This document shows, piece after piece, positions 90 through 18,336 of a DNA stretch of 19,638 nt. This DNA is from a virus (lineage: Duplodnaviria; Heunggongvirae; Uroviricota; Caudoviricetes): positions 1-19,638 of the IMG/VR virus record IMGVR_UViG_2695420718_000005; one strand, 5' to 3'. Below the pieces are notes generated by a model. It made no database searches. It saw nothing but the letters and a program-made list of their open reading frames with translations, and was not told the origin of the DNA. The translations under genes and the position numbers were made by a program. Positions within the stretch are counted from its first letter, which is position 1. Each line of letters begins with the position of its first letter.

Positions 90-311
90 ATGAAAAAAAT
101 GGCAATTGTCGATAAAAAGGGTCTGGAGTACATTCCTAATATCGATCGTATGATCCGTGAGAAAGAATGTCGGGAGCTAACCACTCTTGCGAACAGCACA
201 CGCTGGAAGCTGGAGAAGGAAGGAAAATTTCCTAAGCGGATCAAGATTGGTTCCACTGCTGTTGCATATCGTCTTTCAGAAGTGCAGGCATGGATTAGGG
301 GAGAGTGGTAA
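90..311 (+). CDS. alpA: AlpA-family (prophage CP4-57-type) HTH transcriptional regulator
   Basis: 73-aa ORF; the stretch RELTTLANSTRWKLEKEGKFPKRIKIGSTAVAYRLSEVQAWI fits the AlpA/Phage_AlpA HTH pattern with a conserved Trp near the C-terminus; AAGG about 10 nt upstream of the ATG. An integrase would be expected upstream, outside the window. Confidence 0.8.
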   Translation: MKKMAIVDKKGLEYIPNIDRMIREKECRELTTLANSTRWKLEKEGKFPKRIKIGSTAVAYRLSEVQAWIRGEW

Positions 312-2069: not shown

Positions 2070-2273
2070 ATGAGAAATCATACCACACACCCGCAAGGGC
2101 GGGATTCGCACAACCTGAATAAATACATCTGGCGTTTTATCGCCCTGAGCACCGCACAACCACGCGTAATACACATCGAGGCCGCCAGCGAACAGGAAGC
2201 CCGCCAGCAATCCCCAACTGGCTACGTGATGATATTCGCCGCCCGTATTCGTCAGGAGGTGTGCCGTGCTTAA
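2070..2273 (+). CDS. Hypothetical small protein (67 aa from the internal ATG)
   Basis: ATG at 2070 preceded by GAGG; the longer ORF from 2010 lacks an RBS. Same strand and operon as the downstream coupled genes. Confidence 0.35.
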   Translation: MRNHTTHPQGRDSHNLNKYIWRFIALSTAQPRVIHIEAASEQEARQQSPTGYVMIFAARIRQEVCRA

Positions 2274-2451
2274 AACCTTCCGTGTATTTGCCCGAGCTGT
2301 TAACCCACTGGGCCACACAATTGGTATCACTCAGAACGTGAAGGCTGTTAATGTTCAGACGGCTATTGCTGCGGTGAGAAGCGAATCATCAGAATATGGC
2401 TTATCACAAGTCATTATTTCAGCAGTGTATGAATTAAAAGAGGTGCATTAA
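2266..2451 (+). CDS. Hypothetical small protein (61 aa)
   Basis: GTG start 6 nt after a strong AGGAGG RBS (2254-2259); stop overlaps the next start (ATGA at 2451). Confidence 0.45.
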   Translation: MLKTFRVFARAVNPLGHTIGITQNVKAVNVQTAIAAVRSESSEYGLSQVIISAVYELKEVH

Positions 2452-2642
2452 TGCAGGAAATCACATTACACGAAGCCGCTGAACGTGCGCACCAGACAGA
2501 AATTATTTGCCGCCTTCTTGAGGTATACCCGAACAAAATTACAGATGCTGATATATCCGCGCTGGCGAGCCTACTGGCGCGCCTTTCGGGAAGTGTCGCT
2601 AGTTTCCTGATTGAGGAAGAAAGTAAGCTGGTGGGGGATTAA
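2451..2642 (+). CDS. Hypothetical small protein (63 aa)
   Basis: Start overlaps the upstream stop; stop overlaps the next start; translationally coupled operon. Confidence 0.45.
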   Translation: MQEITLHEAAERAHQTEIICRLLEVYPNKITDADISALASLLARLSGSVASFLIEEESKLVGD

Positions 2643-2864
2643 ATGAATACAGAACGGGAAGTCTTTTTTAAATTGTTAGCATGTGCAGAAAGTTCATTAA
2701 CTTTAAATAATTCAGCAAAAGCAATATTAAATATGTGGCTTGATTGCATAAATGACAATGAAGATGCAAATATTGCTTATGGCCTGTTGTCACTTATTGA
2801 TGAATCAGCAGAAAAACTCAATGACGCAATAAATAGTGCCCTGCTATCAAATAAGTCGAGTTAA
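2643..2864 (+). CDS. Hypothetical small protein (73 aa), AT-rich
   Basis: ORF in the same coupled series. Confidence 0.4.
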   Translation: MNTEREVFFKLLACAESSLTLNNSAKAILNMWLDCINDNEDANIAYGLLSLIDESAEKLNDAINSALLSNKSS

Positions 2865-2881
2865 GTCGAGGAATAAATAAT

Positions 2882-3181
2882 ATGGAAATGAAAAATTCTG
2901 GCTTTATTGCCAGCGGCCCCGCTCGGCCTGAATTTATGAACGGCGATATTTACCGCGATAAATACGGCGGCACGGTAACGATTAAAGGCGTGGCAGAACG
3001 GCGCATCACTTACCGCCGTGAGGGGTATAGCTATGACTGCGTGATGCCTGTTTATCAGTTCCGGCGTGATTTTTCCCTGGTATATGCCGCACCCCGCAGT
3101 AAGCCCATCAGCAGGGAAAAAGCGCGGGGAAACATCCAGAAAATGAAAAGCATGATTAACGCATTCAGGGGCAAAAAATGA
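2882..3181 (+). CDS. Hypothetical protein (99 aa); stop overlaps the primase start
   Basis: ATG at 2882 preceded by gaggaataaataat; the stop overlaps the ATG of the 583-aa gene (ATGA at 3178-3181). Confidence 0.5.
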   Translation: MEMKNSGFIASGPARPEFMNGDIYRDKYGGTVTIKGVAERRITYRREGYSYDCVMPVYQFRRDFSLVYAAPRSKPISREKARGNIQKMKSMINAFRGKK

Positions 3182-4929
3182 AACTGGCACCGAACTTAAA
3201 AAAACAGCCACGCGACAGACTGACAGAGGTAATCATCTTTGCAGGTAGTGATGCGTGGAGCCATGCGAAAGAGTGGCGGGAATGGGCGGGTAAACATATT
3301 GCCGCCGACGATGTGCCGCCTGTCGTGCTGGCTGATGAGCAACTGAAAAATATCACCGATTACCGGATCATTGATGAAGATCGTCAGTGTGTGCGTGTTT
3401 ACCGCGCAGGACATATCACAGAGCACAGCATGACGCAGATTGTTACGTTACTGGCTGTGGCTGGAGTGAAGACCGTACACGAATACGCGGGGATTACTGA
3501 CACCAGCCCAGTGGATTTATCCGAGCAGTTGCCGCGACTCAAAGAGGAATGCGAGCGTGGGGAAAGTCTGGTGCTTAATCTTCCGACGAAGCAAAAGGCG
3601 CAACTTTCACAGATGGCAGACAGTGAACGTGCACAACTACTTGCCGATCGCTTTGATGGTGTGTGTGTTCATGCAGAAAGTGAAATCGTCCACGTATGGC
3701 GCGGCGGGGTATGGTGTCCGGTCAGCACAATGGAGCTGAGCCGCGAAATGGTGGCGATCTATTCAGAGCACAGGGCCACGTTCAGCAAACGTGTAATCAA
3801 TAACGCCGTGGAAGCGTTAAAAGTTATTGCCGACCCCATGGGGGAGCCGTCCGGTGATTTGCTACCGTTCACTAATGGTGTGCTTAACCTGAAAACGGGG
3901 GAATTTTCTCCGCACTCGCCGGAGCACTGGAGCACCACGCACAATGGCATTGAGTACACGCCACCAGTAGCAGGGGAAAACATCCGCGATAATGCGCCAA
4001 ATTTCCATAAATGGCTTGAACATGCTGCAAGAAAAGACCCGCGTAAGATGATGCGTATATGTGCCGCGTTATACATGATTATGGCGAACCGCTACGACTG
4101 GCAGATGTTCATTGAGGCCACCGGAGACGGGGGAAGCGGTAAGAGTACATTTACCCATATTGCCACCCTGCTTGCTGGCAAACAGAACACCGTAAGCGCG
4201 GAGATGACATCACTCGATGATGCAGGAGGGCGCGCGCAGGTTGTCGGGAGTCGTCTTATCGTCCTTGCCGATCAGCCGAAATATACGGGGGAAGGCACGG
4301 GCATCAAGAAAATCACGGGAGGCGATCCCGTTGAAATTAACCCGAAATATGAGAAGCGATTCACGACGATAATAAGGGCGGTGGTACTGGCAACCAATAA
4401 CGACCCGATGATCTTTACCGAACGGGCCGGAGGTGTGTCACGCCGTCGGGTGATTTTCCGGTTCGACAACATTGTAAGGGAGGACGAAAAAGACAAGGAA
4501 TTACCGGAAAAGATAGCGGCAGAAATCCCCGTAATTATCCGCCGCTTGCTGGCTAATTTTGCTGCCCCTGAAAAGGCACGGGCTTTATTACTGGAACAGC
4601 GTGACGGTGATGAAGCTCTGGCAATAAAGCAGCAAACGGATCCGGTTGTTGAGCTTTGCGCGGCGCTGGAGTTTCTGGAGGAAGCTCGTGGGCTAATGAT
4701 GGGCGGTGGTGGTGACACCGTGAAGTACACGACCAGAAACAGCCTTTACCGTGTCTATATGGCCTTCATGGCATACACAGGAAAGGGGAAATGTTTGAGC
4801 GTGAATGAGTTCGGAAAGGCTATGAGGTCAGCGGCGAAAGTTTACGGATATGAATATATTACGCGAAAAGTTAAGGGAGTCACGCAGACCAACGCAACGA
4901 CTACTGATGATTGCGATGCGTTTTTATAA
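3178..4929 (+). CDS. P4-family phage/plasmid primase C-terminal domain / D5-N-like SF3 helicase replication protein (583 aa)
   Basis: Walker A motif GDGGSGKST in the context typical of P4 alpha / PICI Pri-Rep C-terminal helicase domains; immediately followed by an iteron array. Confidence 0.85.
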   Translation: MKLAPNLKKQPRDRLTEVIIFAGSDAWSHAKEWREWAGKHIAADDVPPVVLADEQLKNITDYRIIDEDRQCVRVYRAGHITEHSMTQIVTLLAVAGVKTVHEYAGITDTSPVDLSEQLPRLKEECERGESLVLNLPTKQKAQLSQMADSERAQLLADRFDGVCVHAESEIVHVWRGGVWCPVSTMELSREMVAIYSEHRATFSKRVINNAVEALKVIADPMGEPSGDLLPFTNGVLNLKTGEFSPHSPEHWSTTHNGIEYTPPVAGENIRDNAPNFHKWLEHAARKDPRKMMRICAALYMIMANRYDWQMFIEATGDGGSGKSTFTHIATLLAGKQNTVSAEMTSLDDAGGRAQVVGSRLIVLADQPKYTGEGTGIKKITGGDPVEINPKYEKRFTTIIRAVVLATNNDPMIFTERAGGVSRRRVIFRFDNIVREDEKDKELPEKIAAEIPVIIRRLLANFAAPEKARALLLEQRDGDEALAIKQQTDPVVELCAALEFLEEARGLMMGGGGDTVKYTTRNSLYRVYMAFMAYTGKGKCLSVNEFGKAMRSAAKVYGYEYITRKVKGVTQTNATTTDDCDAFL

Positions 4930-4942
4930 AAAATGGCAATGG

Positions 4943-5171
4943 TTATCTACCTTGTCTACCTGACTGAAAGAAAATACTTTTATTTCAATGTATTAATGCA
5001 GGTAGATAACTATTTTTCACTGTCTACCTGTTATCTACCTTATCTACCCATTTTTGTAGACAGGTAAGGAGACGGGTAGAGATGAGGTAGACAGCTATTT
5101 GGGGCTGTCTACCTCCCTGAAACCCGCGCCATTACTGGCCTGATAACTAATCAGGTAGACAAGGTAGACAA
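4943..5171. repeat. Iteron array (about 11 copies of GGTAGAYA / TRTCTACC in both orientations) with AT-rich flanks; candidate replication origin
   Basis: Read directly: ttatctacc-ttgtctacc (4943-4960), ggtagataa (5001-5009), tgtctacc / ttatctacc / ttatctacc (5021-5048), gtagacagg (5056-5064), ggtagaca (5087-5094), tgtctacc (5106-5113), ggtagacaa-ggtagacaa (5154-5171); AT-rich stretch at 4967-4998. Confidence 0.75.
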
Positions 5172-5218
5172 GGTGGTGGTGCACAAAAAACTTTTTAAAC
5201 GAGGGGGTAAAAATAAAA

Positions 5219-5476
5219 ATGCACACATCAGGAAAACTGAACAAACATATAAAGCCACATTACCGCGCCCTTGATATGGCTGAACACTGGCTAAGGGTGG
5301 CGATTAAGGCAATAGACCGCAACGCCGGGGAAGGATACGCGAAAGCACATCCCGAACTGATAAGCGCATTCATGACAACGGCGGCTGCAAACTTTGCCAC
5401 GCTGACCGAACGGGAGATTGCTGAAGCGGAGGAAGTGACAACAATCAATATTAAGTCCGGAGAGCAGGCAGCATGA
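5219..5476 (+). CDS. Hypothetical protein (85 aa)
   Basis: ORF directly downstream of the iterons; its stop overlaps the ssb start (ATGA at 5473). Confidence 0.5.
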   Translation: MHTSGKLNKHIKPHYRALDMAEHWLRVAIKAIDRNAGEGYAKAHPELISAFMTTAAANFATLTEREIAEAEEVTTINIKSGEQAA

Positions 5477-5922
5477 CGGCGCAAATATCAGTTTACGGGC
5501 GGTTGGTGGACGACCCGCAGACAAAACAGACCAGCAAGGGCACCCCCATGACGCTGGCGCGTATGGCGGTATCACTGCCCTGCAGTCAGTCGGATGACGG
5601 TCTGGCGACGTTGTGGTTATCTGTCCTGGCGTTTGGCAGACAAGCCGACGCGCTGGCAAAGCATCACAAAGGCGAACTCCTGAGCGTGGCGGGTAACATG
5701 CAGATGAGCCAGTGGACTGGACAGAACGGCGAAACGCGGCAGGGCTGGCAGGTTATCGCAGACAGCGTAATCAGTGCGCGATCGGTGCGACCGGGCGGCA
5801 AAAAAGGCCAACAGGGGCAGGCTACTGACGCACTGAACAGAGCAAAACAACAGGCAGATCAGCAAGGAAGCCAGCCACCAGAGGGAGATAATGAGCAATG
5901 GGGAGATGATATCCCGTTTTAA
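5473..5922 (+). CDS. ssb: Single-stranded DNA-binding protein (149 aa)
   Basis: N-terminal OB-fold-like region, Gln/Gly-rich linker and the diagnostic acidic C-terminal tail ending DDIPF (E. coli SSB ends DDDIPF). Confidence 0.85.
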   Translation: MTAQISVYGRLVDDPQTKQTSKGTPMTLARMAVSLPCSQSDDGLATLWLSVLAFGRQADALAKHHKGELLSVAGNMQMSQWTGQNGETRQGWQVIADSVISARSVRPGGKKGQQGQATDALNRAKQQADQQGSQPPEGDNEQWGDDIPF

Positions 5923-5964: not shown

Positions 5965-6138
5965 ATGCTACATAAATCCCGACCAAAGGGAGTGAAGATA
6001 TTAACACTAATTGTCCGCACTGAAGTTGTCACCCCAAAACTTTATACAACATTGCACTCGGTTGCATGTGTTCGCATGACAAATATCGGTGATAGCATAT
6101 ATCCACAATTATTTTTAATGAATGCAAAGAGGATGCGT

Positions 6139-7179
6139 ATGGTTGATTTATATTCGCCTACCCAGCTTGTACAGGTGGTTAATGCTGTAGATGTACAAAA
6201 ACAACTAAATGCGTTGTTTACCAGTTTGTTTTTTACTCGCTCGGTAATGTTTGGATCGCGCGATATTATTCTTGATACAATCGACGATCCAAATATCCCA
6301 ATTGCAGCGTTTTGTTCTCCTATGGTGGGTAGTAAAGTTTCACGTGACGAAGGGTACGAATCAAAAACAATTCGTCCAGGCTATATGAAGCCGAAAAGCA
6401 GCATTGATCCAAATAAGTTAGCTGTGCGCCCTGCTGGTGTATCACCTGAGCAATACAATGCTTTTGGGGCGCGTAATATTAAAGTTAAACAGGCGATTGT
6501 AAATCAAGCTAAAGCTATTCGTGCACGTATTGAATGGCTTGCCGTTCAGGCAATCACAACGGGGAAAAATATCATTGAGGGCGATGGTATTGAACGTTAT
6601 GAGCTGGACTGGAATATTAAACCACAAAATATCATCACTCAGTCTGGCGGTACTGAGTGGTCAGGTAAGGATAAAGAAACTTTTGATCCAAATGATGATA
6701 TTGAGAGCTACGCAGAATTTAGTGAGGGCGTCACTAATATCATCATTATGGGCGGTAATGTATGGAAGAAATACCGTTCATTCAGAGCGATAAAAGAGGC
6801 TCTGGATACCCGTCGTGGTTCTAATTCCGAACTGGAAACGGCCCTTAAAGACCTTGGTGATTCGGTGAGTTTTAAAGGATATATGGGCGATGTTGCGATT
6901 GTTGTTTACAGCGGGCGTTATACCGACGAGGACGGAACTGAAAAACATTTCCTTGATCCTGATTTGATGGTGCTTGGCAATACGGCTCTTCAGGGGATTG
7001 TCGCCTATGGCGGTATTCAGGATCCGGAGCTAATCCGAATGGGGCTGACTAAAGCCGAACTTGCACCGAAAAACTATATTGTGCCTGGTGATCCGGCTAT
7101 TGAATATGTGCAGACACATTCAGCACCACAGCCAATACCGGCCCGCATCAATCGTTTTGTTACCGTTCGCATTGGCTAA
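6139..7179 (+). CDS. Major capsid protein, diverged homologue of lambda gpE (347 aa from the RBS-preceded ATG)
   Basis: Segments PGYMKPK, ITQSGGTEWSGKDKETFDPNDDIESYA and LDTRRGSNSELETALKDLGDSVSFKGYMGDVAIVVYSG align with remembered lambda E; AAAGAGGA RBS before the ATG at 6139. The longer ORF from 5926 has no homology in its extension. Confidence 0.8.
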   Translation: MVDLYSPTQLVQVVNAVDVQKQLNALFTSLFFTRSVMFGSRDIILDTIDDPNIPIAAFCSPMVGSKVSRDEGYESKTIRPGYMKPKSSIDPNKLAVRPAGVSPEQYNAFGARNIKVKQAIVNQAKAIRARIEWLAVQAITTGKNIIEGDGIERYELDWNIKPQNIITQSGGTEWSGKDKETFDPNDDIESYAEFSEGVTNIIIMGGNVWKKYRSFRAIKEALDTRRGSNSELETALKDLGDSVSFKGYMGDVAIVVYSGRYTDEDGTEKHFLDPDLMVLGNTALQGIVAYGGIQDPELIRMGLTKAELAPKNYIVPGDPAIEYVQTHSAPQPIPARINRFVTVRIG

Positions 7180-7188
7180 GGGGGAGCA

Positions 7189-7530
7189 ATGGCTACTCAT
7201 TACACTGAACTCATGGCTGGCACTGAAGCACTGGTGACTACGCTGGGGATATTTTCAGCTAATAAAGGGGTAATTCCTGCATTTACGCCACTGATGCAGG
7301 AAGATGCAACAGGTGCACTGGTGGTATGGGATGGTTCGAGCGTAGGTAAAGCGGTTTATGTTTCCGCTGTACAAATCGACACCGCGAAAAAAACACAGGC
7401 TCAGGTCTATAAGACAGGTGTCTTAAATGTTGATGCTCTGAACTGGCCTGAGTCTGTAAAAGAACTGTCAGTAAAGATTGCAGCGTTTGTTGGCTCAGGT
7501 ATTTCTGTTCAGCCGCTGGCTCGTGTGTAA
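7189..7530 (+). CDS. Head decoration protein, lambda gpD-like (113 aa)
   Basis: PAFTPLMQEDATGALVVWDG, YKTGVLNVDALNWPE and AAFVGSGISV align with remembered lambda D (TPLMLDTSSRKLVAWDG, YKSGTFRYEDVLWPE, TAFAGTAISI); GGGGGAG RBS. Confidence 0.75.
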   Translation: MATHYTELMAGTEALVTTLGIFSANKGVIPAFTPLMQEDATGALVVWDGSSVGKAVYVSAVQIDTAKKTQAQVYKTGVLNVDALNWPESVKELSVKIAAFVGSGISVQPLARV

Positions 7531-7541
7531 AGGGGGATACA

Positions 7542-7925
7542 ATGCAAAATGATTACAATGACCTTAAGCCAATTGCCGAAATGATGTACCCGAATCCAGC
7601 TGTAGAGGAATTAAAAGCTATCGCTGACAAAATGTGTTTAAGCGAGCGCCTTGTTGATATGAATCAGGTGATGGAAATTACAACCCTGAGTCGGCGTACA
7701 CTGCTAAACCTTGAGGCTAGTGGAGAGTTCCCGGAGCGTGTGCAGGTTACGGAAGGGCGTAAGGCCTGGTATTTAAGTGAAGTGATCGACTGGATAAATA
7801 ATATTCCTCGCGCTTCTGAATATTGCCGCGTACCTGTCCCAAAAAAGCCAGATGCGGCGCTATGCCTCAAGATTGAGCGTGTACGCCGCAATGCACGGGA
7901 TGGTCGCTATAAGCTGATTGGTTGA
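7542..7925 (+). CDS. AlpA-like HTH DNA-binding protein with N-terminal extension (127 aa)
   Basis: MEITTLSRRTLLNLEASGEFPERVQV...WYLSEVIDWI fits the AlpA-type HTH pattern; AGGGGGA RBS; located immediately upstream of the cos site. Confidence 0.6.
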   Translation: MQNDYNDLKPIAEMMYPNPAVEELKAIADKMCLSERLVDMNQVMEITTLSRRTLLNLEASGEFPERVQVTEGRKAWYLSEVIDWINNIPRASEYCRVPVPKKPDAALCLKIERVRRNARDGRYKLIG

Positions 7926-7933
7926 TGAAATTA

Positions 7934-7962
7934 GGGCCCGCTCTGGCTGGCGGGTCCTTTCC
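7934..7962 (+). terminator. Candidate intrinsic terminator (gggcccgc-tctggctg-gcgggtcc followed by tttcc)
   Basis: GC-rich imperfect hairpin followed by a short T-run, just after the 127-aa gene stop. Confidence 0.4.
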
Positions 7963-7981
7963 GGCGATCTGACAGGCTACG

Positions 7982-7993
7982 GGGCGTCAGGCG
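7982..7993. other. cosN-equivalent (gggcgtcaggcg), divergent from lambda cosN GGGCGGCGACCT
   Basis: Position and flanks (acg before, cgcgg-attttcgc after) correspond to the lambda cohesive-end region as I recall it; 5 of 12 positions differ. Confidence 0.55.
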
Positions 7994-7998
7994 CGCGG

Positions 7999-8170
7999 AT
8001 TTTCGCTATTTATGAAAATTTTCCGGTTTAAGGCGTTTCCGTTCTTCTTCGTCGTAACTTAATGTTTTTATTTAAAATACCCCCTGAAAAGAAAGGAAAC
8101 GACAGGTGCTGAAAGCGAGCTTTTTGGCCTCTGTCGTTTCCTTTCTCTGTTTTTGTCCGTGGAATGAACA
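7999..8170 (+). promoter_or_regulatory. Lambda-type cosB with Nu1-binding repeats R3, R2, R1 (CGTTTCC / GGAAACG)
   Basis: attttcgctatttatgaaaattttccggtttaaggcgtttccgttcttcttcg ... aaaggaaacgacaggtg ... ctgtcgtttcctttctc matches my recollection of the lambda left end nearly base for base; three CGTTTCC-type repeats read directly. Confidence 0.75.
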
Positions 8171-8722
8171 ATGGAAGTCAACAAAAAGCAGCTGGCTGAC
8201 ATTTTCGGTGCGAGTATCCGTACCATTCAGAACTGGCAGGAACAGGGAATGCCCGTTCTGCGAGGCGGTGGCAAGGGTAATGAGGTGCTTTATGACTCTG
8301 CCGCCGTTATAAGATGGTATGCCGAAAGGGATGCTGAAATTGAGAACGAAAAGCTGCGCCGGGAAGTTGAAGAACTGCGGCAGGCCAGCGAGACAGATCT
8401 CCAGCCAGGGACTATTGAGTACGAACGCCATCGACTTACGCGTGCGCAGGCCGACGCACAGGAACTGAAGAATGCCAGCGAAACAGGTGAGGTAATTGAC
8501 ACTGCATTTGCGACTTATGCCTTGTCGAAATTAACTGGGGAAGTTGGAGCAATCATTGATAGTCTTCCACTTGCGATCTGTCGACAGTTTCCTGGCATGG
8601 AAAAACGGTATCAGGACTTCATTAAGATGGAGGTCAGTAAAGCATTTATTCGAGCTTACCAGATCTCAGATAACATTCCAGATATGGCTGAAAGGTATAT
8701 CAAGGATAATCAGCGAAGTTAA
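8171..8722 (+). CDS. Nu1: Terminase small subunit Nu1 (183 aa); N-terminal DNA-binding half lambda-like, C-terminal half diverged
   Basis: MEVNKKQLADIFGASIRTIQNWQEQGMPVLRGGGKGNEVLYDSAAV... is essentially lambda Nu1; the C-terminal ~70 aa are homologous but diverged. No gpA gene follows. Confidence 0.9.
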   Translation: MEVNKKQLADIFGASIRTIQNWQEQGMPVLRGGGKGNEVLYDSAAVIRWYAERDAEIENEKLRREVEELRQASETDLQPGTIEYERHRLTRAQADAQELKNASETGEVIDTAFATYALSKLTGEVGAIIDSLPLAICRQFPGMEKRYQDFIKMEVSKAFIRAYQISDNIPDMAERYIKDNQRS

Positions 8723-8828: not shown

Positions 8829-9734
8829 TTAAGGTAGTGGTACTATGGATATTTTTCTGTCGTTCCCAAATGAACTTTTAAATAATTTCGCTCTTGGATA
8901 CATTTTAACTAGTGATGCGACTTCATCGAACTCGCTGGCATCAAAAAGAGGACCAAGTATTACAGATTTTAACTCAAAAGGGTGAAATTTTAAGTCGCTA
9001 TATTGACCAGTGCTATTTGGCCTAGCGTAGGTTGAAATTCTCCACTCTCTTTCATATGCCCATTCTTCTGTTTTTATGAATATTATCTCATTATTGATAT
9101 ATTCAATTGACTTATTGTCTGGCATGAAAAGCAACTCGGCCATCCCTTCAGCAGTGTGAGTTAGAGGCATTTCATCTGTGTATTTCATAGGTTTGGCTAT
9201 TAACCAAGCGCTATCCAGAAAGTCTACACAATCAAATTCGATAACTATACCTTTATATTTATCGGCATAGTGATTCCACATAGGAGTGATTATAGGGCTC
9301 TCAGATAAACACAAAATCCTTCTGTTATTAAGCATTCCTCGCCAGACATCTTTCATTTCTTGTATTGCCGCAGGAGCGCCAATCCCAACTGGTGGAATGT
9401 TTACCATTTCTTGAAATCTTTCAATTAATCCTGCGGGTATGCCTAAAGGAAATGACTTTTGGAAATCACTTAGCATTGTTCTAATTCTAGGGTTTAAATT
9501 TTGTATGTCTTCTCTGGGGGTAATCAACTCCGCTATTAACTTGCGGGCTAAAGCTTTGCCAATATTAATTTCGTTAATACCAGGCATAACTTCTCTTGGA
9601 ACATCAAAAGGGTCATTAAATAGGACCGGAGAACTCCATCTAAGGCTGCATGAATCAAGAACAATCTTCGCGGTATTCAACGACATATACTTATAAAATG
9701 TTGAGCGTTCATGCATTCTGTTGGGTGAGCGCAT
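8829..9734 (-). CDS. Hypothetical 301-aa protein, AT-rich moron; motif pattern reminiscent of the DUF2971 family (unverified recollection)
   Basis: Long minus-strand ORF, strongly AT-rich relative to the flanking lambda genes; motifs FYKYMSL, FNDPFD, RILCLSESPIITPMWNHYADKYKGIVIEFD. It occupies the position where lambda A through Nu3, D and E-5' would be. Confidence 0.7.
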   Translation of the reverse strand: MRSPNRMHERSTFYKYMSLNTAKIVLDSCSLRWSSPVLFNDPFDVPREVMPGINEINIGKALARKLIAELITPREDIQNLNPRIRTMLSDFQKSFPLGIPAGLIERFQEMVNIPPVGIGAPAAIQEMKDVWRGMLNNRRILCLSESPIITPMWNHYADKYKGIVIEFDCVDFLDSAWLIAKPMKYTDEMPLTHTAEGMAELLFMPDNKSIEYINNEIIFIKTEEWAYEREWRISTYARPNSTGQYSDLKFHPFELKSVILGPLFDASEFDEVASLVKMYPRAKLFKSSFGNDRKISIVPLP

Positions 9735-9870: not shown

Positions 9871-10659
9871 CCGAAGCATGAGGTGAATCCGCAGATGACC
9901 CTGCGTCGCCTGCCGGATGAAGATCCGCAGAATCTGGCGGACCCGGCTTACCGCCGCCGTCGCATCATCATGCAGAACATGCGAGACGAAGAGCTGGCCA
10001 TTGCTCAGGTCGAAGAGATGCAGGCAGTTTCTGCTGTGCTTAAGGGCAAATACACCATGACCGGTGAAGCCTTCGATCCGGTTGAGGTGGATATGGGCCG
10101 CAGTGCGGCGAACAACATCACACAGTCCGGTGGTACGGAGTGGAGCAAGCGTGACAAGTCCACGTATGACCCGACCGACGATATCGAAGCCTATGCGCTG
10201 AACGCCAGCGGAGTGGTGAATATCATCGTGTTTGATCCGAAAGGCTGGGCGCTGTTCCGTTCCTTCAAAGCCGTCAAGGAGAAGCTGGATACCCGTCGCG
10301 GCTCTAATTCCGAGCTGGAGACAGCGGTAAAAGACCTGGGCGAAGCGGTGTCCTATAAGGGGATGTATGGCGATACGGCGATCGTCGTGTATTCCGGACA
10401 GTACGTGGAAAACGACGTCAAAAAGAACTTCCTTCCGGACAACACGATGGTGCTGGGGAACTCTCAGGCACGCGGTCTGCGCACCTATGGCTGCATTCAG
10501 GATGCGGACGCACAGCGCGAAGGTATTAACGCCTCTGCCCGCTACCCGAAAAACTGGGTGACCACCGGCGATCCGGCGCGTGAGTTCACCATGATTCAGT
10601 CAGCACCGCTGATGCTGCTGGCTGACCCTGATGCGTTCGTGTCCGTACAACTGGCGTAA
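9871..10659 (+). pseudogene. E: 5'-truncated major capsid gene E (lambda gpE residues ~90 to end)
   Basis: Translation PKHEVNPQMTLRRLPDEDPQNLADPAYRRRRIIMQNMRDEEL... matches lambda E almost residue for residue; homology stops abruptly near 9866-9870, where an in-frame TAG (9868-9870) is present; no proper N-terminus or RBS. Confidence 0.8.
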
Positions 10660-13629: not shown

Positions 13630-14045
13630 GTTTTGCCCTGAAACTGGCGCGTGAGATGGGGCGACCCGACTGGCGTGCCATGCTTGCCGGGATGTCATCC
13701 ACGGAGTATGCCGACTGGCACCGCTTTTACAGTACCCATTATTTTCATGATGTTCTGCTGGATATGCACTTTTCCGGGCTGACGTACACCGTGCTCAGCC
13801 TGTTTTTCAGCGATCCGGATATGCATCCGCTGGATTTCAGTCTGCTGAACCGGCGCGAGGCTGACGAAGAGCCTGAAGATGATGTGCTGATGCAGAAAGC
13901 GGCAGGGCTTGCCGGAGGTGTCCGCTTTGGCCCGGACGGGAATGAAGTTATCCCCGCTTCCCCGGATGTGGCGGACATGACGGAGGATGACGTAATGCTG
14001 ATGACAGTATCAGAAGGGATCGCAGGAGGAGTCCGGTATGGCTGA
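13207..14045 (+). CDS. G-T: G-T tail assembly chaperone fusion produced by -1 frameshift (T portion 13611..14045)
   Basis: The -1 frame ORF after the slippery site encodes ...FDGELSFALKLAREMGRPDWRAMLAGMSSTEYADWHRFY..., matching the lambda T region; no independent RBS or start. Confidence 0.8.
13605..13611 (+). promoter_or_regulatory. Programmed -1 ribosomal frameshift slippery heptamer G GGA AAG (G to G-T)
   Basis: GGGAAAG read in the G frame near the 3' end of G; the -1 frame continues as the T ORF to 14045. Confidence 0.8.
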
Positions 14046-17000
14046 ACCTGTAGGCGATCTGGTCGTTGATTTGAGTCTGGATGCGGCCAGATTTGACGAG
14101 CAGATGGCCAGAGTCAGGCGTCATTTTTCCGGTACGGAAAGTGATGCGAAAAGAACAGCGGCAGTCGTTGAACAGTCGCTGAGCCGACAGGCGCTGGCTG
14201 CACAGAAAGCGGGGATTTCCGTCGGGCAGTATAAAGCCGCCATGCGTATGCTGCCTGCACAGTTCACCGACGTGGCCACGCAGCTTGCAGGCGGGCAAAG
14301 TCCGTGGCTGATCCTGCTGCAACAGGGGGGGCAGGTGAAGGACTCCTTCGGCGGGATGATCCCCATGTTCAGGGGGCTTGCCGGTGCGATCACCCTGCCG
14401 ATGGTGGGGGCCACCTCGCTGGCGGTGGCGACCGGTGCGCTGGCGTATGCCTGGTATCAGGGCAACTCAACCCTGTCCGATTTCAACAAAACGCTGGTCC
14501 TTTCCGGTCATCAGTCGGGTCTGACGGCAGATCGTATGCTGGTCCTGTCCAGAGCCGGGCAGGCGGCAGGGCTGACGTTTAACCAGACCAGCGAGTCACT
14601 CAGCGCACTGGTTAAGGCGGGGGTAAGCGGTGAGGCTCAGATTGCGTCCATCAGCCAGAGTGTGGCGCGTTTCTCCTCTGCATCCGGCGTGGAGGTGGAC
14701 AAGGTCGCTGAAGCCTTCGGGAAGCTGACCACAGACCCGACGTCGGGGCTGACGGCGATGGCACGCCAGTTCCATAACGTGACGGCGGAGCAGATTGCGT
14801 ATGTTGCTCAGTTGCAGCGTTCCGGCGATGAAGCCGGGGCATTGCAGGCGGCGAACGAGGCCGCAACGAAAGGGTTTGATGACCAGACCCGCCGCCTGAA
14901 AGAGAACATGGGCACGCTGGAGACCTGGGCAGACAGGACTGCGCGGGCATTCAAATCCATGTGGGATGCGGTGCTGGATATTGGTCGTCCTGATACCGCG
15001 CAGGAGATGCTGATTAAGGCAGAGGCTGCGTTTAAGAAAGCAGACGACATCTGGAATCTGCGCAAGGATGATTATTTTGTTAACGATGAAGCGCGGGCGC
15101 GTTACTGGGATGATCGTGAAAAGGCCCGTCTTGCGCTTGAAGCCGCCCGAAAGAAGGCTGAGCAGCAGACTCAACAGGACAAAAATGCGCAGCAGCAGAG
15201 CGATACCGAAGCGTCACGGCTGAAATATACCGAAGAGGCGCAGAAGGCTTACGAACGGCTGCAGACACCGCTGGAGAAATATACCGCCCGTCAGGAAGAA
15301 CTGAACAAGGCACTGAAAGACGGGAAAATCCTGCAGGCAGATTACAACACGCTGATGGCGGCGGCGAAAAAGGATTATGAAGCGACGCTGAAAAAGCCGA
15401 AACAGTCCGGCGTGAAAGTGTCTGCGGGCGATCGTCAGGAAGACAGTGCTCATGCTGCCCTGCTGACGCTTCAGGCAGAACTCCGGACGCTGGAGAAGCA
15501 TGCCGGAGCAAATGAGAAAATCAGCCAGCAGCGCCGGGATTTGTGGAAGGCGGAGAGTCAGTTCGCGGTACTGGAGGAGGCGGCGCAACGTCGCCAGCTG
15601 TCTGCACAGGAGAAATCCCTGCTGGCGCATAAAGATGAGACGCTGGAGTACAAACGCCAGCTGGCTGCACTTGGCGACAAGGTTACGTATCAGGAGCGCC
15701 TGAACGCGCTGGCGCAGCAGGCGGATAAATTCGCACAGCAGCAACGGGCAAAACGGGCCGCCATTGATGCGAAAAGCCGGGGGCTGACTGACCGGCAGGC
15801 AGAACGGGAAGCCACGGAACAGCGCCTGAAGGAACAGTATGGCGATAATCCGCTGGCGCTGAATAACATCATGTCAGAGCAGAAAAAGACCTGGGCGGCT
15901 GAAGACCAGCTTCGCGGGAACTGGATGGCAGGCCTGAAGTCCGGCTGGAGTGAGTGGGAAGAGAGCGCCACGGACAGTATGTCGCAGGTAAAAAGTGCAG
16001 CCACGCAGACCTTTGATGGTATTGCACAGAATATGGCGGCGATGCTGACCGGCAGTGAGCAGAACTGGCGCAGCTTCACCCGTTCCGTGCTGTCCATGAT
16101 GACAGAAATTCTGCTTAAGCAGGCAATGGTGGGGATTGTCGGGAGTATCGGCAGCGCCATTGGCGGGGCTGTTGGTGGCGGCGCATCCGCGTCAGGCGGT
16201 ACAGCCATTCAGGCCGCTGCGGCGAAATTCCATTTTGCAACCGGAGGATTTACGGGAACCGGCGGCAAATATGAGCCAGCGGGGATTGTTCACCGTGGTG
16301 AGTTTGTCTTCACGAAGGAGGCAACCAGCCGGATTGGCGTGGGGAATCTTTACCGGCTGATGCGCGGCTATGCCACCGGCGGTTATGTCGGTACACCGGG
16401 CAGCATGGCAGACAGCCGGTCGCAGGCGTCCGGGACGTTTGAGCAGAATAACCATGTGGTGATTAACAAAGGACTGATGGCGATGGCGCGCCAGTTCCGT
16501 AACGTGACGGCAGAGCAGATTGCGTATGTTGCACAGCTGCAGCGTTCCGGAGACGAGGCCGGGGCATTGCAGGCGGCGAACGATATCGCCACGAAAGGCT
16601 TTGATGAGCAGACCCGTCGCCTGAAAGAAAACATGGGAACACTGGAGACCTGGGCGGATAAAACAGGGAAGGCATTCAAATCGATGTGGGATGCCATTCT
16701 GGATATCGGTCGTCCTGAATCCTCAGCGGATATGCTCGCCAGTGCGCAGAAGGCATTTGATGAGGCGGATAAAAAATGGCAGTGGTACCAGAGCCGGAGC
16801 CAGCGCCGGGGAAAGACCTCCTCTTTTCGTGCGAACCTTCAGGGGGCATGGGATGACAGGGAAAATGCCCGTCTGGGTCTGGCAGCGGCCACGCTGCAGT
16901 CGGATATGGAAAAAGCCGGTGAACTGGCGGCAAGGGACCGGGCTGAGCGTGAGGCGTCACAGCTGAAGTATACCGGAGAGGCGCAGAAGGCGTATGAGCG

Positions 17001-18336
17001 CCTGCAGACGCCGCTGGATAAATATACCGCCCGTCAGAAAGAGCTGAATAAGGCCCTGAAAGACGGAAAAATCCTGCAGGCGGATTACAACACGCTGATG
17101 GCGTCGGCAAAAAAGGATTATGAATCGACGCTGAAAAAGCCGTCCGGTGTGAAGGTGTCTGCCGGTGAGCGCCAGGAAGACCGGGCGCATGCAGCCATGC
17201 TGGCGCTTGAAACCGAGCTCAGGACGCTGGAAAAACACAGCGGTGTGAATGAGAAAATCAGCCAGCAGCGCCGGGATTTATGGGAAGCGGAAAATCAGTA
17301 TGTGGTCCTGAAAGAGGCCGCCACGAAACGGCAGTTATCTGAGCAGGAAAAATCCCTGCTGGCTCATGAGAAAGAGACGCTGGAGTACAAACGCCAGCTG
17401 GCTGAGCTGGGAGACAAGATTGAACACCAGAAGCGGCTGAATGAGCTGGCACAGCAGGCGGCGCGGTTTGAACAGCAGCAGAGCGCGAAGCAGGCGGCAA
17501 TCAGCGCAAAAGCCCGCGGCCTCACTGACCGTCAGGCGCAGCGGGAGTCGGAAGAGCAGCGCCTTCGTGAGGTGTACGGTGATAATCCGGCTGCGCTGGC
17601 GAAGGCCACATCTGCACTGAAGAACACCTGGTCTGCGGAGGAGCAGCTTCGTGGAAGCTGGATGGCCGGGATGAAGTCCGGCTGGGGCGAGTGGGCGGAA
17701 AGTGCGACGGACAGTTTTTCGCAGGTTAAAAACGCGGCCACGCAGACCTTTGACGGTATTGCACAGAATATGGCAGCGATGCTGACCGGCAGCGAACAGA
17801 ACTGGCGGGGATTCACCCGTTCGGTGCTCTCCATGCTGACAGAAATTCTGCTTAAGCAGGCAATGGTGGGGATTGTCGGGAGTATCGGCAGCGCCATTGG
17901 CGGGGCTGTTGGTGGCGGCGCATCCGCGTCAGGCGGTACAGCCATTCAGGCCGCTACGGCGAAATTCCATTTTGCAACCGGAGGATTTACGGGAACCGGC
18001 GGCAAATATGAGCCAGCGGGAATTGTTCACCGCGGTGAATTCGTCTTCACGAAGGAGGCAACCAGCCGGATTGGCGTGGGGAATCTCTACCGGCTGATGC
18101 GCGGCTATGCCACCGGCGGTTATGTCGGTACACCGGGCAGCATGGCGGACAGCCGGTCGCAGGCGTCCGGGACGTTTGAGCAGAATAACCATGTGGTGAT
18201 TAACAACGACGGCACGAACGGTCAGATAGGGCCACAGGCACTGAAGGCTGTTTATGACGTAGCCCGTAAGGCGGCAATGGATGTTGTGACCGGGCAGATG
18301 CGCGATGGTGGTCTGTTCTCCGGAGGTGGACGATGA
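14038..18336 (+). CDS. H: Tail tape measure protein H with internal in-frame tandem duplication (1432 aa)
   Basis: N-terminus MAEPVGDLVVDLSLDAARFDEQMARVRRHF... and first ~810 aa match lambda H; a second, diverged copy of the ~575-aa core follows in frame, ending with the H C-terminus ...MRDGGLFSGGGR. Confidence 0.9.
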   Translation: MAEPVGDLVVDLSLDAARFDEQMARVRRHFSGTESDAKRTAAVVEQSLSRQALAAQKAGISVGQYKAAMRMLPAQFTDVATQLAGGQSPWLILLQQGGQVKDSFGGMIPMFRGLAGAITLPMVGATSLAVATGALAYAWYQGNSTLSDFNKTLVLSGHQSGLTADRMLVLSRAGQAAGLTFNQTSESLSALVKAGVSGEAQIASISQSVARFSSASGVEVDKVAEAFGKLTTDPTSGLTAMARQFHNVTAEQIAYVAQLQRSGDEAGALQAANEAATKGFDDQTRRLKENMGTLETWADRTARAFKSMWDAVLDIGRPDTAQEMLIKAEAAFKKADDIWNLRKDDYFVNDEARARYWDDREKARLALEAARKKAEQQTQQDKNAQQQSDTEASRLKYTEEAQKAYERLQTPLEKYTARQEELNKALKDGKILQADYNTLMAAAKKDYEATLKKPKQSGVKVSAGDRQEDSAHAALLTLQAELRTLEKHAGANEKISQQRRDLWKAESQFAVLEEAAQRRQLSAQEKSLLAHKDETLEYKRQLAALGDKVTYQERLNALAQQADKFAQQQRAKRAAIDAKSRGLTDRQAEREATEQRLKEQYGDNPLALNNIMSEQKKTWAAEDQLRGNWMAGLKSGWSEWEESATDSMSQVKSAATQTFDGIAQNMAAMLTGSEQNWRSFTRSVLSMMTEILLKQAMVGIVGSIGSAIGGAVGGGASASGGTAIQAAAAKFHFATGGFTGTGGKYEPAGIVHRGEFVFTKEATSRIGVGNLYRLMRGYATGGYVGTPGSMADSRSQASGTFEQNNHVVINKGLMAMARQFRNVTAEQIAYVAQLQRSGDEAGALQAANDIATKGFDEQTRRLKENMGTLETWADKTGKAFKSMWDAILDIGRPESSADMLASAQKAFDEADKKWQWYQSRSQRRGKTSSFRANLQGAWDDRENARLGLAAATLQSDMEKAGELAARDRAEREASQLKYTGEAQKAYERLQTPLDKYTARQKELNKALKDGKILQADYNTLMASAKKDYESTLKKPSGVKVSAGERQEDRAHAAMLALETELRTLEKHSGVNEKISQQRRDLWEAENQYVVLKEAATKRQLSEQEKSLLAHEKETLEYKRQLAELGDKIEHQKRLNELAQQAARFEQQQSAKQAAISAKARGLTDRQAQRESEEQRLREVYGDNPAALAKATSALKNTWSAEEQLRGSWMAGMKSGWGEWAESATDSFSQVKNAATQTFDGIAQNMAAMLTGSEQNWRGFTRSVLSMLTEILLKQAMVGIVGSIGSAIGGAVGGGASASGGTAIQAATAKFHFATGGFTGTGGKYEPAGIVHRGEFVFTKEATSRIGVGNLYRLMRGYATGGYVGTPGSMADSRSQASGTFEQNNHVVINNDGTNGQIGPQALKAVYDVARKAAMDVVTGQMRDGGLFSGGGR
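14747..16471 (+). repeat. Tandem duplication copy 1 inside H (lambda-like allele)
   Basis: Begins ...LTAMARQFHNVTAEQIAYVAQLQRSGDEAGALQAANEAATKGFDD... and ends ...GTFEQNNHVVIN; offset to the copy-2 equivalent positions is 1725 bp (575 codons). Confidence 0.85.
16472..18196 (+). repeat. Tandem duplication copy 2 inside H (diverged allele)
   Basis: Begins ...LMAMARQFRNVTAEQIAYVAQLQRSGDEAGALQAANDIATKGFDE...; contains identical stretches of over 100 nt with copy 1 (e.g. acagaaattctgcttaagcaggcaatggtggggattgtcggg...) interspersed with diverged segments. Confidence 0.85.

Follow-up and report, generated by a model that had tools for sequence, protein, structure and literature searches.

A Rep-iteron replication module without a recognizable primase domain in a Gram-negative PICI embedded in a prophage capsid gene

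Which kind of replicon is formed by a run of small genes, a P4-like replication protein and a block of iterons, and who makes its primers? These questions were raised by positions 2070-5170 of the window, i.e. the whole stretch of 19,638 nucleotides that was analysed here. By analogy with a tested homologue, this segment, continuing into 5219-5922, very probably represents the replication zone of a Gram-negative phage-inducible chromosomal island (PICI), a parasite of phages in E. coli, with a Rep-ori module of the kind already described.

Six ORFs, all on the plus strand, occupied 2070-4929: five small ones (67, 61, 63, 73 and 99 aa), then one of 583 aa. Their successive junctions measured -8, -1, 0, +17 and -4 nt, which bore out the coupled small-gene operon leading into the 583-aa gene that a sequence-only reading had proposed. 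The first gene (2070-2273, 67 aa) encodes an Icd-like protein (NCBIfam NF033153 phage_ICD_like, E=6.5e-20), likewise annotated as such in RefSeq copies, and overlapped by eight nt (GTGCTTAA) a 61-aa ORF with a GTG start (2266-2451, phrog_3672, E=1.6e-45). The latter shared one nt (TAATG) with a 63-aa ORF (2451-2642, phrog_1478, E=2.5e-34), whose stop abutted the start (TAAATG) of a 73-aa ORF (2643-2864, phrog_2196, E=1e-28). After a 17-nt gap containing a GAGGA Shine-Dalgarno sequence came a 99-aa DUF4222 protein gene (2882-3181, Pfam PF13973, E=9e-24), which overlapped the 583-aa ORF by four nt (ATGA). The identical six genes were annotated by RefSeq in a copy displaying 97.7 % identity (L001, from E. 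coli N1420). Before the operon, a consensus scan uncovered a promoter-like site on the plus strand (TTGACA-17-TAGTAT, 1924-1952, 10 of 12 matches), which may drive these genes. It was straddled by a perfect 10-nt inverted repeat (1933-1942 / 1961-1970) that is likely an operator, and this promoter region differed in alleles with another divergent repressor gene. A P4/P1-type immunity RNA (C4/isrK) before the Icd-like gene was also considered and rejected: Rfam returned none at gathering threshold for the complete window, nor any hit on 1-2400 with the limit relaxed to E=5.

The genomic context called for a correction: it was that of a PICI embedded in a prophage and not of a P4-type satellite. 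In L001, the island separated the two parts of a prophage capsid gene and had a tyrosine recombinase directly upstream of alpA at its left end. The window itself begins after int, with alpA (Phage_AlpA, 90-311, plus strand, Pfam E=2.7e-15), and contained the right capsid-gene junction, while both junctions were visible in L001. The core genes of the island, which run from alpA and the Icd-like gene to TerS, were all on the plus strand; the minus strand carried an RHH gene and two cargo genes. Following the origin were a conserved 85-aa ORF (5219-5476, plus strand, phrog_1231, E=3e-48), also present in L001, L002, L004 and L011, and a single-strand DNA-binding protein (SSB) gene (5473-5922, plus strand, Pfam SSB E=2e-15; TIGR00621 67 bits, above cut-off), whose start overlapped the stop of the 85-aa ORF and whose product displayed the canonical DDIPF tail at its C-terminus. 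Positions 6139-8722 encoded a capsid E protein, a decoration protein D, an AlpA-like HTH protein and a Nu1-type TerS, so that the island late genes are of lambda E, D and Nu1 types. At 9883-10659, on the plus strand, a second capsid E gene was represented by its 3' part (Phage_cap_E profile positions 94-328), followed by FI, head-tail and lambda-like tail genes. On sequence grounds, the island stops short of 9883 and the tail genes past that point are those of the prophage, the module being the replication zone of a Gram-negative PICI that interrupts a lambdoid prophage in its major capsid gene. The island was small, as are PICIs, and carried phage late genes of its own and no lysis or tail genes. 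Megablast against a phage collection gave no match, and it is therefore not a catalogued phage.

Such helper-embedded PICIs, among them the '11capE' type, were already described, with a four-zone order of Integration, Bro/variable, Replication and Late (Tommasini, Mageeney and Williams 2023, PMC10111431). The present island fitted that order; like 11capE, it comprised alpA, SSB, a 'primase' and a lambda-E-type capsid gene of its own, and interrupted the capsid gene E of a lambdoid prophage in the same orientation as that gene. This likeness to the 11capE of NRG857c is by published description, and cargo genes may differ.

Rep ('Pri-Rep', 583 aa, 3178-4929, plus strand) matched in Pfam only D5_N (residues 152-281), DUF5906 (315-416) and Pox_D5 (517-575), as expected from the earlier suggestion that it lacks the alpha primase module. 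Its SF3 helicase P-loop core (residues 315-416, 4120-4425, plus strand, PF19263 E=6e-10) displayed the Walker A motif GDGGSGKST at residues 316-324 and matched chain 7OLA, called 'DNA primase' by its depositors (E=4e-15). The C-terminal domain (residues 487-578, 4636-4911, plus strand) matched 1KA8, the origin-binding domain of P4 alpha (E=2.2e-7), and presumably reads the GGTAGAYA iterons. Residues 137-579 aligned to residues 321-763 of P4 alpha with 41 % identity across D5_N, the SF3 helicase and the origin-binding domain; the proposed kinship with P4 alpha was confirmed, and the alpha length of 777 aa given in that reading was correct. TIGR01613 ('primase_Cterm, P4 family') scored 102.6 bits on Rep, just below its cut-off of 108.7. 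In the same Pfam scan, P4 alpha displayed Zn_Ribbon_Prim (residues 30-66, 1.9e-18) and Toprim_3 (210-299, 1.2e-12), neither of which was found in Rep, whose first 151 residues were scanned at E up to 1. Domain searches on the two largest operon products uncovered no complete primase in the 583-aa protein and assigned the 99-aa one to DUF4222. Judged from its domains, Rep combines initiator and SF3 helicase and has no primase domain.

In place of the zinc ribbon and Toprim primase of P4 alpha (residues 30-299), Rep displayed an unrelated N-terminal domain of about 135 residues (residues 1-136, 3178-3585, plus strand), an uncharacterised alpha/beta domain without Pfam or NCBIfam match (AF2 pLDDT 86.7). 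Rep was 80 % identical overall to the Pri-Rep of the model island EcCICFT073, a value that rose to 91.5 % over residues 137-583; the N-terminal domain displayed only 44 % identity to the EcCICFT073 protein, and 84 % to the N-terminus of DUF927-type Reps, on which this allele is otherwise encountered. As these alignments indicate, the domain is exchanged between helicase families. Only A4 and G23 were invariant, A26 and P48 nearly so, and no conserved Asp, Glu or His was found. The scan of genome contigs with the single protein returned only three loci.

It is improbable that this domain is a minimal or degenerate Toprim-like primase, which would make Rep a true primase-helicase. It does occupy the place of the alpha Toprim, directly before D5_N; its motif VIIFAGSDAW bears what we take to be a resemblance to the Toprim strand-Glu-Gly motif; and several weak BFVD fold matches were Toprim or primase proteins (E 0.04-0.3, TM about 0.3). 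However, hhalign of the domain profile (28 sequences) against the Toprim of P4 alpha and 19 alpha-like relatives gave a probability of 0.3 %, no PDB fold matched its model below E=0.1, and its profile gave chance-level matches only against PDB sequences. The invariant positions include no metal-binding acidic residue, a zinc ribbon was absent, and the domain was also joined to the unrelated DUF927 helicase. The idea of a degenerate Toprim was abandoned on these comparisons, although the weak BFVD matches leave a small chance that the domain derived from a primase.

Directly after rep, GGTAGAYA had 10 exact matches, all at 4944-5170 and the only ones in the 19.6-kb window (mean 0.52, maximum 3 in shuffled sequence), with one-mismatch copies at 5055 and 5075. 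Of the 12 occurrences of the 6-nt core GGTAGA in the window, 11 were within 4944-5170, in the order - - + - - - + + - + +; five pairs of these iterons were exactly mirror-symmetric around position 5057. As in Gram-negative PICIs, pri-rep was followed by an ori composed of iteron sets on both sides of an AT-rich segment, here the spacer 4961-5000 (77-80 % A+T). This spacer is probably the first strand-opening site, as suggested by its composition. Its off-centre place, to one side of the symmetric scaffold, makes the exact melting site uncertain; the right mirror-image spacer displayed only 33-60 % A+T (30-nt windows starting at 5100-5130). Of the earlier description, about 11 GGTAGAYA iterons with AT-rich flanks, the number and the left flank stood, while the right flank did not. 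The right-hand spacer harbored a non-iteron block, CTGAAACCCGCGCCATTACTG (5117-5137), which was invariant at all positions but one in alignments of four alleles and EcCICFT073.

The order and orientation of the iterons were the same in L002, L004, L005 and L011. They were also kept, with near-identical spacing, in L009, an element whose Rep displayed 41 % identity and whose iteron, GGTGAACA, is a different one. No description of a mirror-symmetric 11-iteron layout persisting through a change of iteron sequence was found in the literature. Divergence of the origin-binding domain tracked iteron type: identities were 82-84 % among GGTAGA-type elements and 29-35 % against the GGTGAACA-type, the helicase body of a Serratia element of this type being 53 % identical despite its low origin-binding domain identity. 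The DUF927-type Rep was associated with yet another iteron, GGGACAAG, in a comparable layout of an inverted pair, an AT-rich stretch and direct repeats. DnaA boxes were at chance level, with one 1-mismatch site in the ori.

An iteron block in this position could also bind Rep in an accessory role, as a crr-like replication enhancer, in copy control or handcuffing, or as an operator for the downstream genes. In P4, the block directly after alpha is annotated as crr and the true ori lies several kb away from it, and here the block is located just upstream of the 85-aa ORF and ssb. We regard this reading as very unlikely. A second iteron cluster, as in the ori and crr of P4, was absent from the window, and complete islands L001 and L011 displayed a single GGTAGA cluster; furthermore, a candidate unwinding region lies within the block. 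For EcCICFT073, rep and this block were reported to be sufficient for a temperature-sensitive plasmid to persist at 44 C in DH5alpha, and deletion of rep or ori abolished or reduced maintenance (Fillol-Salom et al. 2018, PMC6092414). The conditional-replicon test suggested in the sequence-only reading had thus been carried out on that ori, with a positive outcome. Deletion of pri-rep lowered island transfer about 100-fold (PMC6092414).

EcCICFT073 shared the gene order of the window (Icd-like, small ORFs, DUF4222, a Rep of 584 aa, ori, 85-aa ORF and SSB), and its ori displayed the same GGTAGAYA iterons at equal offsets from the rep stop. By this analogy, the proposal that the iteron block is the origin gained support, as did the function of the Rep-ori module here, drawn from a homologue with 80 % identity. 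Differences were seen in the N-terminal domain of Rep, the divergent regulator (RHH/HicB-like in the window, YlcI/YnfO in EcCICFT073), accessory genes (PD-T7-1 against PerC) and the integration site (prophage capsid gene against the chromosome between roxA and phoQ in CFT073). The module is nearly identical to an experimentally tested replicon; it is real and ordinary.

No Zn-ribbon, Toprim or AEP match was displayed by Rep or by any operon ORF in Pfam, NCBIfam and PHROGs. Because Rep lacks the alpha primase and no small ORF is primase-like, we infer, as the best reading, that priming is provided by the host, DnaG being the most likely primase. The sequence-only reading had left primase activity to the small upstream ORFs or to the host; the former part found no support and the latter is left by elimination. 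In the AF2 model of DUF4222 (pLDDT 72), five strands formed a KOW/SH3-like barrel, to which a basic helix was added at the C-terminus; its best PDB fold matches were Spt5 KOW domains (E ~0.03, rmsd 2-2.6 A, 52-59 columns). The ATGA-type 4-nt overlap with rep was also found in L001-L005 and L011. Such an overlap between the end of the DUF4222 gene and the beginning of rep was common to all the E. coli and Shigella alleles examined, those with the DUF927-type Rep included, which makes some functional link between DUF4222 and Rep likely. A strict linkage with the N-terminal domain of Rep held for E. coli and Shigella loci, but failed in L009, which displayed the same Rep architecture without DUF4222 upstream, and apparently also in L006, where no 99-aa ORF abutted rep. 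A primase activity provided by DUF4222 or by a protein of 61-73 aa, as this overlap might suggest, is hardly credible, given the barrel fold, the lack of primase-related matches, the Reps without upstream DUF4222, the occurrence of DUF4222 in the early region of a lambdoid prophage as well, and a size of 61-99 aa that is, to our knowledge, far below that of any primase catalytic domain. The published EcCICFT073 construct was, moreover, described as rep and ori only, without the small ORFs (PMC6092414), and the small-ORF reading is close to refuted.

Compared with P4, the module displayed homologous D5_N, helicase and origin-binding domains, and, immediately 3' of the gene, octamer iterons that point in both directions. 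The origin was not enriched in DnaA boxes, which fits, without showing, a DnaA-independent initiation as in P4. In contrast, iterons were GGTAGAYA in a single block, against GGTGAACA/TGTTCACC in ori and crr blocks in P4 (the crr sequence was read for comparison, type I iterons being TGTTCACC). None of the P4 genes for morphogenesis and control (sid, psu, delta and epsilon) was seen among the island ORFs assigned as genes, all scanned with Pfam and most also with PHROGs or NCBIfam. Iteron plasmid replicons of the RepA/pi type rely on a winged-helix initiator without helicase, on DnaA boxes and on DnaB loaded by host factors, whereas the initiator here has its own SF3 helicase and DnaA boxes are at chance level. 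The same logic is followed by SaPI Rep/ori and other self-loading SF3 initiators: the helicase doubles as origin-binding initiator, an AT-rich segment with iteron sets around it forms the ori directly 3' of rep, and a variable DNA-binding domain confers specificity (for SaPI origins, partly after PMC6092414). Only the ATPase core was detectably related, and SaPIs usually carry a separate or fused primase as well.

Taken as a mechanism, the Icd-like gene, the three tiny ORFs, DUF4222 and rep very probably form one rightward operon, probably transcribed from 1924-1952, in which overlapping stops and starts couple translation. Rep very probably acts as a self-contained initiator and helicase whose C-terminal domain reads the iterons that follow its own gene. 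These 11 sites form a scaffold mirror-symmetric around 5057, on which Rep may assemble as SF3 hexamers, open the AT-rich spacer 4961-5000 and unwind the DNA, while the SSB of the island would coat single strands. Primers would come from host DnaG, Rep having presumably lost the zinc-ribbon/Toprim primase of P4 alpha. The exchangeable N-terminal domain would be the best, if speculative, candidate for a protein-contact module.

A wider proposal is more doubtful than probable: the 'primase' of databases and of the PICI literature would, in a large group of Enterobacterial islands, be no primase, its fused primase having been replaced by an adaptor of about 135 aa that moves between D5/SF3 and DUF927 helicases. 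This adaptor may recruit DnaG or another part of the replisome, possibly together with DUF4222, and the mirror array kept with a changed iteron would suggest two Rep hexamers placed head to head.

The replicon type was already described and tested in a close homologue, and the finding itself is of little weight. It does correct a widespread annotation, namely 'DNA primase family protein' on a protein without a primase domain. It also provides a clean comparative set in which DNA-binding domains of Rep vary together with their iterons (GGTAGAYA, GGTAGARG, GGTGAACA and GGGACAAG) on one fixed origin geometry, which would be usable for studying initiator specificity and the incompatibility of co-resident islands. 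The recombining N-terminal domain and the conserved DUF4222 would be candidates for the link to the host replisome.

The replication module consisted of six co-directional genes on the + strand (2070-2273, 2266-2451, 2451-2642, 2643-2864, 2882-3181 and 3178-4929, as listed from the raw sequence), the last of which encodes Rep, a 583-aa product carrying the Walker A motif GDGGSGKST. Since the successive junctions, computed by script, were -8, -1, 0, +17 and -4 nt, the stop codon overlapped or abutted the next start at four out of five. The same six genes were called by RefSeq annotators in the copy of the island from E. coli N1420 (97.7% identity). Motif GGTAGAYA was present in 10 copies, all within 4944-5170 (mean 0.52 and maximum 3 in shuffled sequences), or 12 when two one-mismatch copies were included, while its 6-nt core GGTAGA occurred 11 times in this stretch and once elsewhere in the 19.6 kb. 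The small-gene operon, Walker A gene and iterons described in the sequence-only reading were thus confirmed by ORFs, junctions and iteron counts.

Pfam domains recognized in Rep were D5_N (residues 152-281), DUF5906 (SF3 P-loop, 315-416) and Pox_D5 (517-575). In the 777-aa alpha protein of P4, the same library placed Zn_Ribbon_Prim (30-66) and Toprim_3 (210-299) ahead of these three domains, whereas neither was found in Rep, even at E-values up to 1 over the first 151 residues. Sequence searches of the PDB matched the helicase core to 7OLA (E=4e-15), a chain deposited under the name 'DNA primase', and the C-terminal 92 residues to 1KA8, the origin-binding domain of P4 alpha (E=2.2e-7). Residues 137-579 were 41% identical to P4 alpha (tblastn against phages), where they correspond to residues 321-763 according to the P4 annotation. 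As the alpha domains Zn_Ribbon_Prim and Toprim_3 were absent, the earlier proposal that Rep is missing the primase catalytic module was correct, and this so-called primase is entirely devoid of a primase domain.

Relatives recovered by exhaustively searching 1.84 billion representatives fell into two groups. Members of the first were many, 770-830 aa long and of alpha-like architecture, with matches starting at about residue 320-380 of these relatives; those of the second were 575-650 aa long and matched from residue 1. Alignment of 28 N-terminal segments left only A4 and G23 invariant, with A26 and P48 nearly so, and displayed no conserved acidic or histidine position. From this alignment, AlphaFold2 predicted with confidence an alpha/beta domain of four strands (pLDDT 86.7, pTM 0.80), for which Foldseek found nothing below E=0.1 in the PDB. 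Searches of BFVD yielded one phage protein of 112 aa, uncharacterised (E=4e-4), and scattered weak Toprim/primase matches (E 0.04-0.3, TM ~0.3). A Toprim identity was not supported, profile-profile comparison with the Toprim region of the alpha-like relatives being negative (probability 0.3%). We conclude that no primase can be recognised in the N-terminal domain, which is without the residues such an enzyme would need.

The model island EcCICFT073, taken from the chromosome of CFT073, displayed the order Icd-like gene, four small ORFs, DUF4222 gene, 584-aa Rep (annotated 'DNA primase family protein'), 288-bp gap, 85-aa ORF and SSB gene. The two Rep proteins shared 80% identity overall, with 91.5% for residues 137-583 against 44% for the N-terminal 1-136. 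Across its first 396 nt, rep was instead 86% identical to the starts of DUF927-type rep genes (84% for the protein), while the remainder followed the EcCICFT073 lineage. Judged from these identities, the N-terminal domain of Rep is a recombining, exchangeable cassette. A DUF927-type Rep of 711 aa was encoded in an island of E. coli LR-24 situated at tRNA-Pro (6001-8372 of that locus); its N-terminal domain was 84% identical to that of the window and was preceded by the same overlapping DUF4222 gene.

The intergenic region of EcCICFT073 aligned with positions 4921-5225 of the window, with GGTAGA cores at the same offsets. When cloned in a temperature-sensitive plasmid, rep and ori of EcCICFT073 allowed its maintenance in DH5alpha at 44 C (Fillol-Salom et al., PMC6092414), and mutation of either abolished or reduced plasmid maintenance; deletion of pri-rep decreased island transfer ~100-fold (PMC6092414). 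The conditional-replicon test of rep and ori put forward in the sequence-only reading has therefore a positive outcome on a near-identical module (PMC6092414). As rep and ori function there, assignment of the iteron block 3' of the window rep gene as a putative replication origin is well founded by homology.

The 11 GGTAGA cores started at 4944 (-), 4953 (-), 5001 (+), 5021 (-), 5032 (-), 5041 (-), 5075 (+), 5086 (+), 5106 (-), 5154 (+) and 5163 (+), with successive spacings of 9, 48, 20, 11, 9, 34, 11, 20, 48 and 9, and the five outer pairs had exactly one common dyad centre at 5057. The left 40-nt spacer (4961-5000) was 77-80% A+T. Its mirror counterpart on the right was GC-richer and contained CTGAAACCCGCGCCATTACTG at 5117-5137, a block invariant except for one position among the five alleles compared, in which iteron flanks were variable. 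Inverted neighbouring iterons could form hairpins in single-stranded DNA. DnaA boxes were not enriched at the origin, which fits a DnaA-independent initiation as in P4.

Order and orientation of the iterons (- - + - - - + + - + +) were common to Nissle 1917, Shigella and EcCICFT073, and O157:H7 displayed the same layout with a GGTAGARG variant and one site reversed. The layout recurred in vB_KppS-Ant (Rep 41% identical) with the unrelated-looking octamer GGTGAACA, at offsets 32, 42, 85, 106, 117, 125, 170, 180, 201, 245 and 253. Sites of the GGTGAACA type were also found in a Serratia element (Rep 51% identical), and this octamer is used by P4 crr, the iteron block that likewise lies directly after the alpha gene. 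With the DUF927-type Rep of LR-24, the iteron was GGGACAAG; an inverted pair came first, followed by an AT-rich stretch and direct repeats. In the C-terminal DNA-binding domain, GGTAGA users shared 82-84% identity with one another and 29-35% with users of GGTGAACA, also where identity in the helicase body was 53%. Repeat sequence and initiator domain thus covary while geometry remains fixed, providing comparative evidence for these repeats as the Rep binding sites.

The first small ORF (2070-2273) encoded an Icd-like protein (NF033153, E=6.5e-20), ORFs two to four (2266-2864) belonged to PHROG families of unknown function, and the 99-aa product of 2882-3181 was a DUF4222 protein (E=9e-24). In its model (20 homologues, pLDDT 72), five strands were followed by a long C-terminal helix of basic character, the best PDB matches being Spt5 KOW domains (E ~0.03, rmsd 2-2.6 A); the predicted KOW-like fold is an adaptor-type fold. 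These assignments, together with the model, gave no support to the idea that a small upstream ORF supplies primase activity. The DUF4222 stop codon overlapped the rep start in the window, in loci L001-L005 (including the N1420 and LR-24 islands) and in EcCICFT073. Because this overlap holds even with a DUF927-type Rep, a functional link between DUF4222 and Rep is plausible. Another ORF preceded rep in vB_KppS-Ant, whose related Rep is also 583 aa long. The early-left region of the CFT073 lambdoid helper prophage furthermore contained an annotated DUF4222 gene (15192-15431 of that locus), near excisionase fragments, so the family is not confined to island replication operons.

Upstream of the operon, a promoter-like site (TTGACA-17-TAGTAT, 1924-1952, + strand) was located between the operon and a divergent RHH gene. 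A perfect 10-nt inverted repeat, GTGTACCTAT / ATAGGTACAC, straddled its -10 element (repeat arms 1933-1942 and 1961-1970) and may serve the divergent RHH protein as operator. Its half-site GGTACACA displayed one mismatch to the origin iteron GGTAGACA; an operator for Rep itself is the less likely candidate. The leader of the Icd-like gene contained a hairpin (CGCCCTG...CAGGGCG, 2000-2033, z=-2.8), the pairing of which was kept in the Nissle 1917 allele through a compensatory change, and the ~35 nt from there to the start codon were invariant except for a few positions. No Rfam family, C4/isrK included, matched leader 2000-2069.

The window comprised two nested mobile elements. In the island (positions 1 to ~9800), alpA (90-311) was followed by a 449-aa match to defence protein PD-T7-1 (363-1712, - strand; PADLOC, E=1e-153); its slot, bounded by alpA and the RHH gene, is variable and holds another gene in the N1420 island. 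The RHH/HicB-like gene (- strand), an AlpA-like HTH gene and a Nu1-type small terminase gene were also present; the operon was followed by the 85-aa ORF and the SSB gene, and the island had its own intact lambda-E-type capsid and lambda-D-type decoration genes (6139-7530). At its right end, a 301-aa DUF2971 protein (8829-9734, - strand; PADLOC candidate defence family PDC-S31, E=2.5e-32) was encoded just inside the junction with a prophage capsid fragment (9883-10659, + strand; capsid-E profile positions 94-328 only), after which came lambda-like head-completion and tail genes. In N1420, the same island lies between 5' and 3' fragments of the prophage capsid gene and has an integrase at its left end. 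A lambdoid prophage thus carries the island within its major capsid gene, which is the helper-embedded PICI configuration of Tommasini, Mageeney and Williams (PMC10111431). Of 50,697 phage records, none was matched by Megablast, which gave matches in 1,838 out of 5,426 complete E. coli genomes. The prophage tape-measure ORF (14038-18336, + strand) encoded 1432 aa versus 853 aa in the otherwise collinear N1420 prophage; Pfam recognized the C-terminal domain of the lambda tape measure in two stretches, and no tandem DNA repeat was detected.

Rep and the intergenic block form an E. coli replicon, and Rep combines an SF3 helicase core with a P4-type origin-binding domain and no primase domain, as shown from sequence or, for a close homologue, by experiment. 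During initiation, the C-terminal domain of Rep would bind the 11 sites, hexamers would assemble on the symmetric scaffold, and Rep would open the AT-rich spacer and unwind the DNA. Single strands would be covered by the island SSB (DDIPF tail) and primers provided by host DnaG, while the N-terminal domain, perhaps jointly with DUF4222, may mediate a protein contact. Because it sits inside a prophage, the island can also be copied passively as the composite replicates, a process discussed by Tommasini et al. (PMC10111431).

In the published PICI work examined, no description was found of a so-called primase wholly devoid of a primase domain, of the exchangeable N-terminal domain or of the exact mirror symmetry of the iteron array and its preservation across iteron specificities. 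These are refinements and not a new kind of system: the main interpretation of the earlier reading was right, and the module represents one allele of a PICI replicon that is already known and validated by experiment, within a helper-embedded island of known type.
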